6,659 nucleotides of DNA from a virus. Its lineage: Duplodnaviria; Heunggongvirae; Uroviricota; Caudoviricetes. A program made the translations under genes and the position numbers. A model generated the notes under the pieces. The model was not told the origin of the DNA. It saw nothing but the letters and a program-made list of their open reading frames with translations, and did not search any database. Below, one piece after another: positions 118 through 6,626 of this stretch. Position 1 is the stretch's first letter, and each line of letters starts with the position of its first letter. The stretch is from IMG/VR virus record IMGVR_UViG_2537562019_000020; one strand, given 5' to 3'.

Positions 118-143
118 TTCTCAAAAACCTCGGTTTACAGGAA
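118..143. other. Left crossover site (gix/cix-like), TTCTCAAAAACC-TC-GGTTTACAGGAA
   Basis: 26 bp with 12-2-12 architecture: two imperfect inverted half-sites (consensus TTC..AAACC) around a central dinucleotide. The inner half-site TTCCTGTAAACC and the GA/TC core match Mu gix as I recall it. Partner site lies in inverted orientation at 3368-3393. Confidence 0.8.
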
Positions 144-167
144 ACGGTAAACAGGGCCAGGAACGCC

Positions 168-1124
168 GTGCAAAAGAATGGCGATACCTTGTCCGGTGGG
201 CTTACTTTTGAAAACGACTCTATCCTTGCCTGGATTCGAAATACTGACTGGGCGAAGATTGGATTTAAAAATGATGCTGATGGTGACACTGATTCATACA
301 TGTGGTTTGAAACAGGCGACAACGGCAATGAATATTTCAAATGGAGAAGCCGCCAGAGCACCACAACAAAAGACCTGATGAATCTTAAATGGGATGCTTT
401 GTCTGTCCTTGTTAAAGCCCTTTTCAGCAGTGAAGTAAAAATATCGACAGTCAATGCACTGAGGATATTTAATTCATCTTTTGGTGCTATTTTTCGTCGT
501 TCTGAAGAATGCCTGCATATCATCCCTACACGAGAGAATGAGGGAGAAAATGGTGATATAGGGCCACTACGCCCCTTTACGCTTAATCTTAGAACTGGTC
601 GGATAAGCATGGGGCATGGTCTTGATGTTACAGGGGATATATTTGCAAACCGTTTTGCTATTAACAGCAGTAATGGTATGTGGATTCAGATGCGCGATAA
701 CAACGCTATCTTTGGGAGAAATATAGTTAAAACTGATAGCGCCCAGGCATTGCTACGTCAGGACCATGCTGACCGCAAATTTATGATTGGTGGACTGGGG
801 AATAGGGAATTTGGCATCTACATGATTAATAACTCAAGGACAGACAATGGCACCGATGGTCAGGCGTACATGGATAATAACGGGAATTGGCTTTGCGGCT
901 CGCAAATTATTCCCGGCAATTATGGTAATTTTGACTCACGCTATGTTCGTGACGTTCGCATGGGTGCTAACCAGAGTGGGATTGTCTGGGGTGGTGATGG
1001 CGGAACGGTTCCAGCCGGATACGTTCTGACAGGTGGCAACTTTGATGATTCGAGAGAATGGCCTGTCTACGCTCCTGTTCAGAAATATATTAATGGTCAT
1101 TGGTACAATGTAGGACGTGCTTAA
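168..1124 (+). CDS. Tail-fibre variable C-terminal segment (Sv-like, receptor-binding part). Frame is open from 63 with no ATG/GTG/TTG before GTG at 168, so the true N-terminus is uncertain
   Basis: 318-aa ORF ending ...NFDSRYVRDVRMG...PVQKYINGHWYNVGRA, a C-terminal motif shared with the minus-strand fibre segment and typical of Mu S / P1 S-type fibres. Immediately followed by a chaperone gene. Possible SD AGGA at 159-162 five nt before GTG 168. Confidence 0.8.
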   Translation: MQKNGDTLSGGLTFENDSILAWIRNTDWAKIGFKNDADGDTDSYMWFETGDNGNEYFKWRSRQSTTTKDLMNLKWDALSVLVKALFSSEVKISTVNALRIFNSSFGAIFRRSEECLHIIPTRENEGENGDIGPLRPFTLNLRTGRISMGHGLDVTGDIFANRFAINSSNGMWIQMRDNNAIFGRNIVKTDSAQALLRQDHADRKFMIGGLGNREFGIYMINNSRTDNGTDGQAYMDNNGNWLCGSQIIPGNYGNFDSRYVRDVRMGANQSGIVWGGDGGTVPAGYVLTGGNFDDSREWPVYAPVQKYINGHWYNVGRA

Positions 1125-1125
1125 T

Positions 1126-1659
1126 ATGCAGCATTTAAAAAATATTAAAGCAGGAAATCCCAAAACTATCGAACAGTATCAACTTACAAAAGAATTTGAT
1201 GTTGTCTGGTTATGGTCGGAAGAAGGTAAGAACTGGTATGAGGAACAGAAAAATTTCCAGCCTGACACGTTAAAAGTGGCATATAACCAGGAGGGTGTTA
1301 TTTGCTGTATTGAGAAAGATGTATCCCTGATTAATCCAGAGGGAATGAGTGTGGTTGAGTTACCCAATATTACGGCAAACCGACGCGCTGATATTTCCGG
1401 CAACTGGATGTTCAAAGATGGCGTAGTGATAAAGCGAACTTATACCGAGGAAGAGCAGAGGCAACAAGCGGAAAATGAAAAGCAAAGCCTGCTACAGCTC
1501 GTCAGGGATAAAACACAGCTATGGGACTCACAGCTACGGCTGGGCATCATTTCCGACGAGAATAAACAAAAATTAACCGAGTGGATGCTCTATGCGCAGA
1601 AAGTCGAATCTACAGACACCTCCAGCCTGCCAGTAATATTTCCCGAACAACCTGAATGA
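1126..1659 (+). CDS. Tail-fibre assembly chaperone (Mu U / P1 U / Tfa family)
   Basis: ATG at 1126 lies 1 nt after the Sv stop (TAA 1122-1124), AGGA about 10 nt upstream. N-terminus [40 protein letters not shown] is near-identical to the N-terminus of the minus-strand paralogue at 1688-2215. The ORF track begins at GTG 1117; ATG 1126 is preferred. Confidence 0.85.
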   Translation: MQHLKNIKAGNPKTIEQYQLTKEFDVVWLWSEEGKNWYEEQKNFQPDTLKVAYNQEGVICCIEKDVSLINPEGMSVVELPNITANRRADISGNWMFKDGVVIKRTYTEEEQRQQAENEKQSLLQLVRDKTQLWDSQLRLGIISDENKQKLTEWMLYAQKVESTDTSSLPVIFPEQPE

Positions 1660-1662
1660 GAC

Positions 1663-1690
1663 AAGGCCCGATAGCGGGCCTTAATTTTTA
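1663..1690. terminator. Intrinsic terminator between the convergent chaperone genes; stronger for the plus-strand operon
   Basis: Stem 1663-1670 (aaggcccg) pairs with 1675-1682 (cgggcctt), loop atag, followed by aattttt on the plus strand. Sits between the U stop (1657-1659) and the U' stop (1688-1690). Confidence 0.55.
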
Positions 1691-2215
1691 TTCAGGCTTT
1701 TGTGGCCATTCGGGCTTTGCTGTATCCACACGGTTGACCAGAACGCTGTAGCGTTCCCATGACTCCAGTCGTGTACGCTCCTCATCCGTCGCCATATTCA
1801 GCCTGACAGCGCGTTCCAGTGGCTGAATAACGCTTTCAGCTTCAGAAAGCAACGCGGCCTTTTGTGATTCGGCCTGTTGTTGTTGCTCGTCTGCCGTATA
1901 AATCCGTTTAACCACAGCTCCGTCCCTAAACATCCACTTACCGGAATCATCAGCGCGGCGGTTGGCTGTAATATCTGGAACCTCAACGACGCTATAACCT
2001 TCAGGGTTAAGCGTGGAGGCATCTTTGGTGATGGCGACAATAATATTATTTGCATCGTAAACAATCTTTATTGTGTCTGGCTGAAAGTTTTTCACTTCCT
2101 CATACCAGTTTTTTCCGTCTTCGGACCATAACCAGATAACATCAAATTCTTTTGTAAGTTGATACTGTTCGATAGTTTTGGGATTACCTGCAGTAATATT
2201 TTTTAAATGCTGCAT
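1688..2215 (-). CDS. Tail-fibre assembly chaperone, alternative copy (U'-like)
   Basis: 175 aa. N-terminal 45 aa about 90% identical to U ([40 protein letters not shown]), C-terminal half divergent. ATG at 2215 sits 3 nt after the stop of the upstream fibre ORF. Confidence 0.85.
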
Positions 2216-2218
2216 AAA

Positions 2219-3376
2219 TTATACCTGTGCGACGTTATACCATGTGCCATTGATGTATTTTTGTATTGGTCTGAATACAGCCGGATCATCGCCATCAACA
2301 GCGCCAATAATGCCAAGCCCCGTAATTGCATGACCTGATTTCTCATACATCACGCCTTTTTGCATAGTCTGAACAACACGTGTACCAAGTCGGACATCTC
2401 TCACATAACGAGAATCAAAGTTACTCCAGTTGTTGGGGTTTATCTGACCGTTAACGGAGAACAATACTGAATTATCTGTATTTCTTTGACTATAAAAATG
2501 CCAACCTGAATCATCACCAAGTTCTGCAACTACGGGGCGGGATGAATTACCCCATAAATTAAACCTTGCATTCTTTGTGGAGTTGTTGGAGCTTGATAGC
2601 GAGAGTTTTTTACCATCTCCGGCCTGAATGTTTTTTAAAGCAATAGCCACGCCATTCTGGAAACGGAATACATGCTGACTATTAGCATAAACATCAAGAA
2701 GGCCATCGCCGTTCTGTTTGAAACCAGTATCATTATCCCCCAAAACAATCGAGTTACCGCCAAGAACACTGGATGTTCCGATGCCCAGTGCACCATTCAA
2801 TTGACCGCCAGATAATGACAACGCCCCAACCTCAGCAGCAGTCGGTTTAATGTGCGAACTGTAAATTACATATACAGTTCCATCTGTCAGGCCTGTTGGT
2901 TTATTCGCTGTATAAGTTGGTGATGTATGAATCGTTACGCTGGCGTTACTGGTATAATCCCACTGAATATTAACACCTGTGGCGTAATTACCTATTTCTA
3001 CATAAATGTCATAGGTATCACCGGATGTATTCACCCATGCAAAATGAGTAAATCCAACCGAGGTCCGTCGCCATAATGCACCAGTAATACCTTTTGGATT
3101 CCCATTTCCGGCACGCAGAACCAGCTCAGAGATGCCTGCTTGATGCGAGGAGCCAACGTTATACCCTGCGCCACCAATCAGGCTTATGTAAACCACGGAA
3201 CTGGCTTGTGGCATTGTTACAGTTGCCAGTTTGAACCATCCAGCACCACCACTAAAAGACATGGTTGTTGAATTTGTTGTGCCGATATTACGCAGGAATA
3301 GTTTTTTATCGGGAATATCTGCGCCGTTCTGGTTTTTCTGTAATGCGCCAGAAGCCTTATTTACCGTTTCCTGCAA
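2219..3376 (-). CDS. Tail-fibre variable C-terminal segment, alternative copy (Sv'-like). Frame is open up to 3448; the annotated start is a TTG inside the crossover site
   Basis: 385-aa ORF, Gly/Ser/Thr/Asn-rich, ending ...NFDSRYVRDVRLG...RPIQKYINGTWYNVAQV, paralogous to the end of the plus-strand fibre segment. Arrangement Sv-U / U'-Sv' is the classic Mu G / P1 C layout. Confidence 0.8.
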   Translation of the reverse strand: MQETVNKASGALQKNQNGADIPDKKLFLRNIGTTNSTTMSFSGGAGWFKLATVTMPQASSVVYISLIGGAGYNVGSSHQAGISELVLRAGNGNPKGITGALWRRTSVGFTHFAWVNTSGDTYDIYVEIGNYATGVNIQWDYTSNASVTIHTSPTYTANKPTGLTDGTVYVIYSSHIKPTAAEVGALSLSGGQLNGALGIGTSSVLGGNSIVLGDNDTGFKQNGDGLLDVYANSQHVFRFQNGVAIALKNIQAGDGKKLSLSSSNNSTKNARFNLWGNSSRPVVAELGDDSGWHFYSQRNTDNSVLFSVNGQINPNNWSNFDSRYVRDVRLGTRVVQTMQKGVMYEKSGHAITGLGIIGAVDGDDPAVFRPIQKYINGTWYNVAQV

Positions 3377-3393
3377 ACCGAGGTTTTTGAGAA
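3368..3393. other. Right crossover site (gix/cix-like), TTCCTGCAAACC-GA-GGTTTTTGAGAA
   Basis: Inverted copy of 118-143 with one mismatch; same 12-2-12 architecture with central GA. Lies 65 bp upstream of the invertase ATG. Confidence 0.8.
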
Positions 3394-3422
3394 TTGCCTC
3401 CGTGTCGTCTGAACGATATTTT
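3394..3422 (+). promoter_or_regulatory. Candidate sigma70 promoter of the invertase gene (TTGCCT-17-TATTTT), directly abutting the right crossover site
   Basis: Hexamers read by eye, each 4/6 to consensus with 17-bp spacing, about 36 bp upstream of ATG 3458. Weak call. Because it lies in the inverted repeat, a mirror copy exists at about 89-117 reading leftwards. Confidence 0.3.
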
Positions 3423-3457
3423 TTCCCGCTTTCAGCAACAATTGCAGGTTAGAAAGT

Positions 3458-4012
3458 ATGCAATACGGCTATGCGAGAGTGTCAACTTTTGACCAGAATT
3501 TGGAGTTACAACTGGAAGCGCTCAGGAGTTCAGGATGTGACCGGATTTTTGAAGATAAAATATCTGGCGCGAAGTCAAAACGACCAGGACTGGATAAGCT
3601 GATAAAAGCGTTACGACCGGGTGATACGGTTATTGTCTGGAAGCTGGACAGAATGGGGCGTTCTCTGATTCATCTTGTTGAATTGCTTAACTATTTTTTA
3701 TCAAACAACATTGAATTTATTTCTGTTACAGAAGGAATAAAAATTAGCACATCAATTGGCCGCTTTGCCTACACAATGCTGAGTGCGGTCGCAGAGATGG
3801 AGCGGGAAAATATTATTGAAAGAACGCGTGCAGGATTAGCGGTGGCAAGGGCTAACGGTAGGATAGGGGGGCGCCGCTCAAAACTGGCACCCGAGCAATG
3901 GGAACAGGTCGGAAGGCTTATTGTGAATGGTGTTTCACGTAAACAGATAGCGATTATCTTCGATGTTGCTTTATCCACGCTTTACCGCAGGTTTCCGGCT
4001 GGGAATCATTGA
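3458..4012 (+). CDS. Serine site-specific DNA invertase (Gin/Cin/Pin/Hin, Din family)
   Basis: 184 aa. N-terminal catalytic motif YARVST.DQ with Ser9; conserved VWKLDR.GRS; GRFAY..L.AVAEMERE.IIERT; GRIGGR; C-terminal HTH ...RKQIAIIFDVALSTLYRRFP. Overall strong resemblance to Pin/Cin as recalled. Confidence 0.92.
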   Translation: MQYGYARVSTFDQNLELQLEALRSSGCDRIFEDKISGAKSKRPGLDKLIKALRPGDTVIVWKLDRMGRSLIHLVELLNYFLSNNIEFISVTEGIKISTSIGRFAYTMLSAVAEMERENIIERTRAGLAVARANGRIGGRRSKLAPEQWEQVGRLIVNGVSRKQIAIIFDVALSTLYRRFPAGNH

Positions 4013-4034
4013 CTGGAGTACAACCATAAATCAA

Positions 4035-4057
4035 TATCCCCTGCAATGCAGGGGATA
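4035..4057. terminator. Perfect palindrome TATCCCCTGCA-a-TGCAGGGGATA between convergent invertase and sopB; candidate bidirectional terminator or protein-binding site
   Basis: 10-bp stem (4035-4044 / 4048-4057) with 3-nt loop, GC-rich core; flanked by cttctt on the plus strand and a moderately U-rich tract on the minus strand. Centred in the 49-bp gap between the invertase stop (4010-4012) and the sopB stop (4062-4064). Confidence 0.4.
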
Positions 4058-4061
4058 CTTC

Positions 4062-5027
4062 TTAAGTATCAGTAGATTGTTCCTCTAGTAACAACTCAAT
4101 TCTGCTTAGTATTTCTTTAGATATTTTGCGGCTATCAATTTTTATAGTTACAAAATTACCTTTATATCTAGCAGTGATCCCTTCCCCATATTTTTTCTCG
4201 TCTTTTGTTTTTTCCTCGTCGCCAACCAGAACAGAGTCAGATAATATTTGTATAATCCGTGAAGATTCTAAATCCTCGCCGTTTTTTTTAATTGCCAGAA
4301 GATGATGAGCAGCATTGCTCATGGCAGCCATGTTTTTTTTGTAAACCTTAAACAAAGAATCTCCAGCACGAGCTGACAGTTCTCCTGGATGATTGAAGAT
4401 AGCTAATATATCTTTTGGTAGACCAGCTGTATTGATACAGCGAGTGATAATATTTCTATCTATATTTTCAGCCTCGGCTAATGCTTTAACGTTACCATCA
4501 AAGTCATTTAGCTTGCGTAAGTATCTCTTTCCTCTTTCGTATGCACTAATAGGCCTATAATCGTTACCAATTTGGGATAACCAATGCATCTGTTCATCGT
4601 CGAGATCACCAATTAAGACGCGATAGTCACATCCTGTTAATATCGCTGCTTTTCTTCTACGTGAGCCGTCAGCGACTTCAACGATTCCAGATACTTTTCT
4701 GGCGAAAGCTGGATTTTGTTGTCCAGACGTTAGAAAAGATGGGATTAAATCGGCTAGAGAGGATTCATTTAATAAATCTTGATCGCGTTCATTACCTAGC
4801 CATACCATTGTTGCCATTTCAACTTTATCTGCGGGAATTGTCTCTAACTTAAAGTTAACATTACGTCCGCATACTGGCAAAGTTATGCTGTTACCGGTTA
4901 ATGAGCTCAGTTGACGTTTTAAATCACCAACCATAGGTGATACGGGCTGATGTTCAGGGGCATGATGATTATTACTCATAATGCGATTAATATCTGGAGC
5001 ATTTTTCAGAAGAGAGCGCTGTTTCAT
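4062..5027 (-). CDS. sopB: Plasmid partition protein SopB (ParB family, type Ia centromere-binding)
   Basis: 321 aa. Motifs matching F SopB as recalled: ITLPVCGR.V.F; GNERDQ.LL; DLIPSFL.TGQQ.PAF.R.VSG; ADGSRRRKAA (ParB arginine motif); LSQ/R.GNDYRP.SAYERG; ITRCINTA.LPK; F.HPGELSAR.GD. Start ATG overlaps the sopA stop (TAATG at 5025-5029). Confidence 0.85.
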   Translation of the reverse strand: MKQRSLLKNAPDINRIMSNNHHAPEHQPVSPMVGDLKRQLSSLTGNSITLPVCGRNVNFKLETIPADKVEMATMVWLGNERDQDLLNESSLADLIPSFLTSGQQNPAFARKVSGIVEVADGSRRRKAAILTGCDYRVLIGDLDDEQMHWLSQIGNDYRPISAYERGKRYLRKLNDFDGNVKALAEAENIDRNIITRCINTAGLPKDILAIFNHPGELSARAGDSLFKVYKKNMAAMSNAAHHLLAIKKNGEDLESSRIIQILSDSVLVGDEEKTKDEKKYGEGITARYKGNFVTIKIDSRKISKEILSRIELLLEEQSTDT

Positions 5028-6193
5028 TATTCGTTCTCCCAGCGAGGTTTTATTAGATCATCAAAAATTTCTCGGCAAACAGGGTCCCATATAGAAACAG
5101 CATTTCTCCATGCATTCAATGTTGAACGTTGGTTTGCTGCTTGTTCAAATACTGTTCTCATTTTTATCTGGCCTTTACCTACTTCATCGGTAACGCGTAC
5201 AACCTGACGTAATACCATTGATCCCCATGTATTTCTTATTTGTTCTTCCATCCATCGTGATTGATTCCCTGTAGTGAGACTATATTTAGTCAGAAGTAAG
5301 CGAACGGTTGGCTCAAATCCACCTAGGTCAACGCTTTCCAATAGATCGAGAAGCATTGTGAAAAACTGCAGAACAGAAGCGTAATCAAATAATTCTGCAG
5401 GTGTAGCAACAACAATAACGTCAGCGGCACAAACAACGTTAATGGTTCCTGTACCGAGGTTCGGAGCACTATCTATAACGATAACATCGTAGTTATCCCA
5501 AACTGATTCAATAGCTGCGCGTAGCATAAGGTGTGGAGGATGAGGCAATTTACCCTGAGCATGATATTGCATGAGATCTGTTTCTATACGATGTAAAGCT
5601 AGGCAGCTAGGGATAATGTCTAGCCCAGGCCAACATGTTGGCTTTATAGCATATTCAGCGTTATCGCGTTCTCCTAAGTAAAATGGCAGTAAAGTATCCT
5701 CGGCATGGATATGTAAATCAGGAACATAACCGTGATACATAGAGGCCGTGCCTTGAGGATCGTTACCTTCAACCAAAAGAACACGATGACCTTGTAATGC
5801 TAACCATTGAGCTTGATGCACCGCAGACGATGTTTTATAAACGCCGCCTTTGTGTGACATAACGGCAAGCACAACAGGGTTTTTATCTTGTGGTCGTTGG
5901 TTTGGGTTGCCAAAAACTGCTCGCATACTGTTGATTTGATCTATGGTATAACCAGCACGACGTTCAATTCTTCCTCTCATTTCAAAGTCAGGTGCAGGTA
6001 AACGCCCGCTCTTTTCAGCATCTCTAATTGCTTGAGGAGTTACACCAATTAAATCTGCTACTTCAGTTATACCCCATCGGCGGGGGATACGCCGAGCTTC
6101 AGGACTATCATCACCGAATTGAGCGATAGCAATTGCTTTGGTCATTTCTTGACCTCTCGTAACACAATCTTGCAATAACTTTTTCAAAGACAT
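5027..6193 (-). CDS. sopA: Plasmid partition ATPase SopA (ParA family, type Ia with N-terminal regulatory extension)
   Basis: 388 aa. Deviant Walker A KGGVYKTS; long blocks near-identical to F SopA as recalled (EMTKAIAIAQF.DDSPEAR, VEGNDPQGTASMYHGYVPDLHIHAEDTLLPFYLGE, IKPTCWPGLDIIPSCLALHRIETDLM, VIVIDSAPNLG.GTINVVCAADV, WMEEQIR..WGSMVL, TDEVGKGQIKMRTVFEQA, IKPRWE). GGAG SD 7-10 nt upstream of the ATG at 6191-6193. Confidence 0.92.
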   Translation of the reverse strand: MSLKKLLQDCVTRGQEMTKAIAIAQFGDDSPEARRIPRRWGITEVADLIGVTPQAIRDAEKSGRLPAPDFEMRGRIERRAGYTIDQINSMRAVFGNPNQRPQDKNPVVLAVMSHKGGVYKTSSAVHQAQWLALQGHRVLLVEGNDPQGTASMYHGYVPDLHIHAEDTLLPFYLGERDNAEYAIKPTCWPGLDIIPSCLALHRIETDLMQYHAQGKLPHPPHLMLRAAIESVWDNYDVIVIDSAPNLGTGTINVVCAADVIVVATPAELFDYASVLQFFTMLLDLLESVDLGGFEPTVRLLLTKYSLTTGNQSRWMEEQIRNTWGSMVLRQVVRVTDEVGKGQIKMRTVFEQAANQRSTLNAWRNAVSIWDPVCREIFDDLIKPRWENE

Positions 6194-6214: not shown

Positions 6215-6292
6215 CTTTGCTTAATAATTAAATCTTTGCTTATTTCTAGCAAATTTGCATGAAAAAGGCAAAGCAAAACGAAAAACGCAAAG
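6215..6292 (-). promoter_or_regulatory. sopAB promoter/operator: four CTTTGC hexamers in dyad arrangement around a central GCAAATTTGC palindrome
   Basis: CTTTGC at 6215-6220 and 6234-6239; GCAAAG (inverted) at 6268-6273 and 6287-6292; central palindrome at 6249-6258. Hexamer centres are symmetric at 17 and 36 bp from the dyad centre (6253/6254). Candidate minus-strand promoter TTGCTA (6252-6247) -17- AATTAT (6229-6224). The F sopAB operator is known to use four CTTTGC SopA-binding repeats. Confidence 0.6.
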
Positions 6293-6481: not shown

Positions 6482-6626
6482 AAGAACACAAATAAAGAAC
6501 ACAAAAGCAAGGTAATGACAAAAGCATAGTAAAGAACACAAATAAAGAATTAAAGCCAATGTTAAATGAAAGAAGTCGCAGTCTGAGAACATTACACTAA
6601 AAGAGAACATTAATCAAGAACACAAC
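6482..6626. repeat. Cluster of short direct repeats of the AGAACA family in an AT-rich non-coding region
   Basis: Exact 18-bp direct repeat AAGAACACAAATAAAGAA at 6482-6499 and 6532-6549; further AAGAACACA copies at 6495-6503 and 6616-6624; GAGAACATTA at 6585-6594 and 6603-6612. Confidence 0.7.

Follow-up and report, generated by a model that had tools for sequence, protein, structure and literature searches.

The 48-nt perfect core of an inverted repeat shared by the 5' ends of two convergent, predicted tail-fibre assembly chaperone genes in a phage-plasmid of E. coli is very probably the product of a recent, non-reciprocal gene conversion between these paralogous ends, with U as the donor and U' as the recipient. 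The window referred to throughout is the whole 6,659-nt stretch of DNA analysed, which is the complete WGS contig APXB01000010.1 of E. coli GCA_000356365.2. U denotes the 177-aa gene and U' the 175-aa gene, retaining the labels of an earlier note on this DNA; these labels are swapped relative to orthology, because the Mu, D108 and P1 records name the 177-aa gene U' and the 175-aa gene U (PDB 5YVQ_B is of the 175-aa type). Paralogy plus recombination gave rise to the repeat as a by-product; it is neither a programmed element nor a second switch.

Both convergent ORFs are predicted to encode tail-fibre assembly chaperones of the Caudo_TAP family (PF02413), scoring 123 and 128 bits where the cutoff is 22.1. 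Over its whole length the 177-aa protein can be aligned with the Mu Tfa of known structure (PDB 5YVQ_B, E 8e-62), and its C-terminal part is orthologous to Mu/P1 U', while the 175-aa gene is the ortholog of Mu/P1 U and is 97.6% identical to D108 U over gene nt 79-330. The stem of the terminator between them is lengthened by the 3' ends of both genes (Table 1). Two 12-2-12 cix/gix-like crossover sites, the only ones in the window (0.04 expected by chance), bound the segment, and parB and parA/sopA come after the invertase. The backbone of the window matches E. coli phage-plasmids of 46-50 kb, and the right end of the window can be aligned with the linear phage PhiR46_1 at its annotated telR end. 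One end of the contig lies at the invertase site and the other at the hairpin telomere.

The outer invertase switch is active in this element. As in Gin/Cin/Hin/Pin-type systems, we found a serine recombinase, two inverted 26-bp sites, both orientations of the segment, and exchange at the central dinucleotide. Sc is joined to Sv in L089, L094 and L096, and the segment is flipped in L090, L093 and L095, with Sc joined to Sv' in L090. In the window itself both segment ends are joined to the invertase flank, and the left cix site is a hybrid whose outer half comes from the invertase side (cixR) and whose inner half comes from the Sv side (cixL).

Table 1. Features of the invertible segment and its inner repeat, in window coordinates.
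Feature	Position	Strand	Remarks
Left cix-like crossover site	118..143	.	12-2-12 match, 0 mismatches
Sv, variable C-terminal fibre part	132..1124	+	Gp34_trimer; ends ...PVYAPVQKYINGHWYNVGRA
Left arm, inner inverted repeat	1125..1274	+	5' end of the 177-aa chaperone gene (U)
Tail-fibre assembly chaperone (predicted), 177 aa (U)	1126..1659	+	Pfam Caudo_TAP, E 8.5e-36
Donor copy of the perfect core (probable)	1156..1203	+	Gene nt 31-78; native to the 177-aa gene, 18 independent loci
GC-rich hairpin terminator between the convergent chaperone genes	1663..1682	.	z = -4.6
Tail-fibre assembly chaperone (predicted), 175 aa (U')	1688..2215	-	Caudo_TAP, E 2.8e-37
Right arm, inner inverted repeat	2067..2216	-	5' end of the 175-aa chaperone gene (U')
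Recipient conversion tract in U' (probable)	2138..2191	-	Maximum gene nt 25-78; perfect block 2138-2185
Sv', alternative variable fibre part	2219..3379	-	Ends ...PIQKYINGTWYNVAQV
Right cix-like crossover site	3368..3393	.	12-2-12 match, 0 mismatches
Serine DNA invertase (Resolvase + HTH_7)	3458..4012	+	PF00239, E 2.9e-45; PF02796, E 1e-13

A repeat search of the window returned two arms of 150 nt that are 90% complementary, start at the ATG codons of the two chaperone ORFs, and have 792 nt between them. Base-by-base comparison gave 48 nt as the longest perfect run (1156-1203 against 2138-2185), with 934 nt separating the two cores, so that the roughly 90% inverted identity and the 48-bp perfect core described in the earlier note were reproduced to the exact coordinate. 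Since 30 shuffles of the window gave no exact inverted match longer than 16 nt, the 48-nt match lies far beyond chance. Scanning 1100-1300 and 2040-2240 for a cix/gix 12-2-12 site (TTC..AAACC-NN-GGTTT..GAA) revealed none; the best match, 8 of 16 specified positions, is background, and real crossover sites score 16/16. The idea that the arms conceal a cix, gix or quasi-cix site was rejected on this result, which agrees with the earlier view that the repeat contains no gix-like site and is not a substrate of the invertase. As the arms lack a cix-like site, the invertase has no role in the conversion either. No Chi site that could serve as a nearby recombination hotspot is present in the window, and a structured RNA as the nature of the repeat was rejected, there being no Rfam match in the window.

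The expected similarity of such gene pairs was taken from a baseline of 49 distinct convergent chaperone pairs drawn from 80 IMG/VR loci. Over gene nt 1-150 the partners mostly showed an identity of 0.71-0.77, with perfect runs of 12-21 nt, and only a handful of other pairs were outliers besides that of the window, which reached 0.89 over gene nt 1-150 and 0.94 over nt 1-100 with a run of 48. The P1 and D108 pairs (identities of 0.70 and 0.75, each with a run of 21) likewise differ from the window, at 89-90% with its run of 48. Judged by these comparisons, the high 5' identity of the window pair is not a trait of the family.

The excess identity maps to a short block inside U'. Compared with the L052 locus, the window has 100% identity at 1866-2135 and 97-100% at 2196-2405, but the interval that holds the U' arm of the core, 2136-2195, reaches only 70-80%. 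When U' was compared site by site with U and with the L052 ortholog, all 12 informative sites within gene nt 25-69 carried the base of the partner gene, and every informative site from gene nt 79 onwards carried the base of the ortholog. Using the consensus of 11 orthologs as the reference gave the same pattern except for one isolated site at nt 259. The block is thus partner-like with ortholog-like sequence on both sides (97-100% upstream of the gene), as is expected of a conversion tract; the chance probability of such a contiguous block is, as a rough figure, of order 1e-13. The minimum informative span is gene nt 36-67, and relative to unconverted alleles the tract alters residue 15 (K or V to I) and residue 23 (N to E) of U'.

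The direction and recency of the event can be read from the distribution of the tract sequence. A 38-nt signature of the core occurs in only four IMG/VR contigs: twice only in the contig of this element, and once each in L083, L084 and L085, where the chaperone that carries it follows a fibre with a GRA-type tail, as in the Sv of the window. This chaperone is 96-100% identical to window U over nt 1-150. Look-ups with two near-identical U proteins yielded 16 more loci of phage-plasmid, P1-like, P2-like, Mu-like and lambda-like context, and in all 15 of those with a complete chaperone pair the signature sits in U and never in the partner. Because the tract sequence is native to the GRA-tail-linked chaperone only, across 18 independent loci (L083-85, L093-L108), about 48 nt were copied from U to U'. 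Complete E. coli genomes, considered as a further source of orthologs for the Sv-tail/U-5' cassette, held no record spanning window positions 966-1420.

Sister elements preserve the unconverted state. L093-L100 match the window at 99.9% in the parAB/invertase backbone, at 99.8% in U and at 99.6-100% over nt 79-330 of U'; the 5' end of their U', however, is the ordinary 'KTKEQYQLTKNFDV' allele, whose identity to its partner is 0.81 and whose longest perfect run is 17. Between the window and these sisters there are 19 changes in the 53 nt at 2146-2198, versus about 1% elsewhere. The triplet CCC at gene nt 34-36, which is specific to the U alleles of this backbone, is also found in window U'. Gene nt 23, 24 and 30 of U' are unlike both U and the sister allele and the same as in the U' allele of the L038/L103 type, which leaves the exact unconverted ancestor and the 5' boundary of the tract uncertain; the tract may be 48 nt instead of 54, or two events may have occurred. 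The tract is confined to a lineage of three E. coli isolates (GCA_000356365.2, GCA_000358735.1, GCA_000358875.1), which are possibly clonal as their accessions form an adjacent series, apparently from one sequencing project.

Purifying selection on the N-terminus, or on the nucleotides themselves (for example for translation initiation), would in principle yield similar 5' ends without any recombination, and the N-terminal 48 or so residues are indeed conserved, with NPKT.EQYQLTK and GKNWYEE present in all variants. We nevertheless find this explanation scarcely credible. Other pairs encode the same residues at only 70-77% nucleotide identity, indicating that the conserved N-terminal residues usually carry many synonymous differences, and Nei-Gojobori estimates for U versus U' codons place the loss of synonymous divergence in the tract alone: dS and pN are both 0 in codons 11-26, the perfect core, and 0.29 and 0.041, respectively, in codons 1-35, but pS is saturated at 0.80 in codons 49-178 (pN 0.384) and at 0.76 in codons 71-110 (pN 0.156), where the protein is well conserved. 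As codons 71-110 are equally conserved and yet saturated at synonymous sites, selection at the protein level is not the cause, and the codon-level comparison bears out the argument made earlier from the perfect block that purifying selection cannot account for the identity. The sister elements, which have identical flanks and lack the high identity, refute this reading. A different possibility is that each fibre tail was imported together with its chaperone 5' end, the two ends being similar by source and never having exchanged sequence. Fibre tails and chaperone N-termini do travel together as cassettes, and part of the identity of the repeat beyond the tract (gene nt 79-150, about 82%) does stem from the window-type U sharing a 5' sequence family with the 175-aa genes; against this, the block lies inside U' with flanks 97-100% identical to ordinary U'/Sv' on both sides, so that it is not a cassette edge, and it bears the CCC specific to the U of this backbone. 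Separate acquisition is therefore extremely improbable.

The earlier note had proposed that homologous exchange across the repeat could invert the core at 1204-2137, swap chaperone C-terminal domains and so produce fibre/chaperone combinations beyond the two given by the outer switch. Exchange across the repeat demonstrably took place, in the form of a short non-reciprocal conversion, but the inner inversion is unsupported. L089, which by way of L001 (the same contig as the window) equals the window over 118-5656 save for 3 mismatched positions in the left cix site, L090, which is 100% identical to the window over 549-3384, and the window itself are collinear over 549-3384 despite representing both outer orientations. 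We constructed eight hybrid U/U' proteins with crossovers between residues 8-27, 27-33, 33-41 and 41-49, in both reciprocal forms, and none of the eight was present in a collection of 15 billion proteins that does contain U and U' as adjacent genes, although this is weak evidence because the parental alleles occur on only 3-4 contigs. The core signature was not found in a metagenome scan and appeared only in parental contexts in IMG/VR; retrieval of loci by the exact U protein is biased against recombinants. No product with a further fibre/chaperone combination was thus seen in assemblies, hybrid-protein look-ups or signature scans.

On this evidence it is very unlikely that the inner repeat functions as a substrate on which RecA-type recombination inverts the ~0.9-kb core and so re-pairs fibres with chaperone bodies. 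Shen and Huang reportedly put, in 1986, the minimal processing segment for RecA/RecBCD recombination at about 25 bp, and since the 48-bp perfect homology exceeds this length, such an inversion is physically possible. Mosaic joints between chaperone residues ~30 and ~45 in the comparative data also favour it, and the range of fibre-tail and N30 types found with the 175-type body (below) suggests that re-paired bodies can be viable over evolutionary timescales. However, the flanks of the core are ~8-18% diverged and mismatch repair penalises recombination between diverged flanks, and the sole event documented is non-reciprocal. In Mu Tfa, a variable N-terminal domain binds the fibre tip and a conserved helical C-terminal domain drives trimerisation (PMC9608196). 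If a crossover took place in the core, the part exchanged would run from residue 27 to the end, carrying most of the fibre-binding N-domain along with the C-domain and not the C-terminal domain alone. We give a biologically meaningful role of core inversion little chance. A broader proposal, in which the 5' repeat acts as a recombination linker, repeatedly renewed by conversion, that between elements joins fibre-tail cassettes to either chaperone body and inside a single element permits rare RecA-dependent inversion of the core, is in our view most unlikely; if true, it would place a slower second layer under the invertase switch, with four fibre/chaperone pairings instead of two.

The repeat consists of the paralogous 5' ends of convergent Tfa (Caudo_TAP) genes within a Gin/Cin-type invertible host-range segment, and for such pairs a nucleotide identity of only ~70-80% at these ends is usual. 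In this lineage, about 48 nt (54 at most) were very probably copied from 1150/1156-1203 in the 177-aa gene into 2138-2185/2191 in the 175-aa gene, creating the perfect core and raising the identity of the repeat from ~81% to ~90%. The most likely mechanism is formation of a heteroduplex between the inverted arms, on one molecule or on sister copies, by RecA or a phage recombinase, which we infer was resolved without crossover. The donor could also have been the U of a co-resident sister element instead of the partner on the same molecule.

Similar patches were seen in other loci. The 175-aa gene of L060 is 100% identical to the L075 ortholog over nt 160-520 and carries six consecutive partner-type sites at nt 27-45, and comparable partner-type blocks are present in the 175-aa genes of L006 and L076, for which the reference genes are less close. 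L060 appears to be a clean independent patch, and L006 and L076 are probably further cases. These blocks suggest that the 175-aa gene has undergone short-patch conversion at its 5' end more than once.

A comparative linkage table of 149 chaperone genes revealed that the first ~30 residues of the chaperone vary together with the type of fibre tail and that the C-terminal domain falls into two main types, each found in either position. The 175-type body, from residue ~35 onwards, is found after six fibre-tail types, with four N30 types. In L083-85 a window-type N-domain is fused, immediately behind NRRADISGNWM and at nt ~285-300, to a 175-type C-domain, and in L087 a fibre body like that of the window Sv ends in an AQV tail and is followed by a 175-aa chaperone. 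Natural exchange of chaperone C-terminal domains, as suggested earlier, is therefore represented by L083-85, but its joint does not lie in the repeat. These loci were considered as products of inner inversion and rejected, since L083 has as the partner a complete gene of the Mu-U' type that possesses an N-domain of its own, and since the joint falls outside the 5' repeat. Mosaic joints thus occur at three places: where the 5' repeat ends on its inner side, at the boundary between the chaperone domains, and in the fibre. Exchange between elements explains them all, and none needs an intramolecular inner inversion. The window-type cassette of fibre tail and chaperone 5' end is itself found in P1-, P2-, Mu- and lambda-like elements.

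The segment follows the order of Mu G and P1 C, with a constant fibre, site, Sv, chaperone, terminator, convergent chaperone, Sv', site and serine invertase, and it shares their 26-bp 12-2-12 crossover sites. Over parts of the genes, its chaperone bodies share 92-98% identity with their D108 and P1 counterparts. It differs from Mu G and P1 C in its backbone, that of a linear phage-plasmid with parAB and a telR-type end, and in the Sv tail and first ~100 residues of the 177-aa chaperone, which come from another cassette. In the P1 record, a Fis-dependent enhancer is annotated inside cin. The two-domain logic of Mu Tfa fits the natural hybrid joint of L083-85; the tract of the window falls within residues 1-26, a stretch that varies in step with fibre-tail type.

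Gene conversion and concerted evolution between inverted paralogs are familiar from tufA/tufB in Salmonella. The window resembles that case in having a short, non-reciprocally homogenised block within diverged inverted paralogs, recognised by a local loss of synonymous divergence and a switch of affinity, and differs from it in that its arms are only 0.8-0.9 kb apart within a segment flipped by an invertase and its tract is only ~48 nt long and private to one lineage. In the multiple-inversion systems p15B Min and the R64 shufflon, the nested repeats are recombinase crossover sites. The nested inverted repeats of the window could likewise in principle give more than two arrangements, but unlike those of p15B Min and the R64 shufflon its arms have no cix-like site, and the invertase should therefore not act on them.

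A full-text literature search found no description of conversion between U and U', which is not proof of novelty. No new mechanism is involved: this is a known process in a new example of a well-known system. What the locus offers is a clean, datable case in which the paired chaperone genes of a phage host-range switch underwent short-patch conversion, with unconverted sister alleles at hand. It shows that homologous exchange operates inside invertible segments beside the invertase, and it adds to the view that genes for tail fibres and their chaperones are mosaics in which certain joints are preferred. The 48-bp perfect inverted repeats, the invertase sites and the hairpin telomeres all affect the short-read assembly of such loci.

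The first 136 nucleotides of the window match, in reverse complement and without a mismatch, the flank on the invertase side at 3375-3510; 53 nt of this copy are the start of the invertase gene. The left cix crossover site is a hybrid whose outer half comes from cixR and whose inner half comes from cixL. Inspection of related loci revealed that the true left flank, as found in L089, is the constant fibre part Sc, and that the junction of invertase, cix and the variable fibre part Sv is present as a genuine flipped state in two sister elements on the same parAB/invertase backbone (L093 and L095). Taken together, the copied flank, the Sc-flanked locus and the flipped sisters indicate that both ends of the invertible segment are joined to the invertase flank in the window contig, which is a fold-back assembly from a population of mixed orientation. 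The contig provides direct evidence of an active invertase switch in which exchange takes place at the central dinucleotide of the site.

The earlier note had called the chaperone gene at 1126-1659 U and the one at 1688-2215 U', labels that are swapped relative to orthology, since the records of Mu, D108 and P1 give the name U' to the 177-aa gene and U to the 175-aa gene; the chaperone in PDB 5YVQ_B is of the 175-aa type. The two genes also match in inverted orientation at their 3' ends: their last codons, CCTGAATGA and CCTGAATAA, form an inverted repeat (1647-1703) that lengthens the terminator stem, giving one bidirectional hairpin common to both chaperone genes.

Natural mosaics of chaperone and fibre were found at other loci. 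In three of these (L083, L084 and L085) the chaperone downstream of a GRA-type fibre tail is a hybrid that carries an N-domain of the window type (nt 1 to ~285) fused, directly after the conserved NRRADISGNWM motif, to a 175-type C-terminal domain, a structure that agrees with the two-domain model for Tfa proteins. The E. coli plasmid pZ1323HEC0355-3 (L087) is a backbone relative with 97.8% identity to the window across the invertase-parAB region, but its tail genes are lambda-like (J/Lom/Stf). At L087 3812-5925, a fibre body 89% identical to Sv of the window nevertheless ends in the AQV-type tail and is followed by the 175-aa chaperone, an arrangement that implies a mosaic joint within the fibre at the conserved GNFDSRYVRDVR motif.

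Smaller patches were evident within the 175-aa gene. L060, L006 and L076 harbour independent patches matching the partner chaperone gene at gene nt ~20-70, and the patch in L060 is clean, its reference being 100% identical elsewhere. The recipient was the 175-aa gene in all three cases, which hints that its 5' end is a recurrent, and possibly a directional, hotspot of conversion. Comparison of the window with the sister elements revealed a second cluster of differences, eight in 64 nt, at the 3' end of the gene (1712-1775); the probable explanation is a further short mosaic patch whose source was a different allele and not the partner. Some sisters also differ by a 3-nt indel at 1875-1877, and in them the gene encodes 174 aa.

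In alignment, the right contig end falls on the telR site annotated at the terminus of the linear phage PhiR46_1. Probably, therefore, the element is a linear plasmid-prophage bounded by hairpin telomeres, and the contig stops at the telomere. The palindrome and repeats listed below are candidate partition or operator sites.

Features of the right contig end and the parA region
Feature	Position	Location	Detail
Right contig end	6644-6659		reads ...CCATTATACGCGCGTATAAT
24-nt palindrome	6234-6273	directly upstream of parA/sopA
22-nt repeat	6483-6625	between parA and telomere	AGAACACAAATAAAGAACACAA; 4 copies, 73-100% identity

In GCA_000358875.1, a contig of 442 kb carries at its end an invertible segment identical to that of the window, in the flipped state and joined to the P2-like baseplate genes H, I, J, W and V. 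Such a setting is unexpected for a phage-plasmid with a size of about 48 kb; integration of the element, a chromosomal P2-like prophage that shares Sc, or a mis-join in the contig might account for it.
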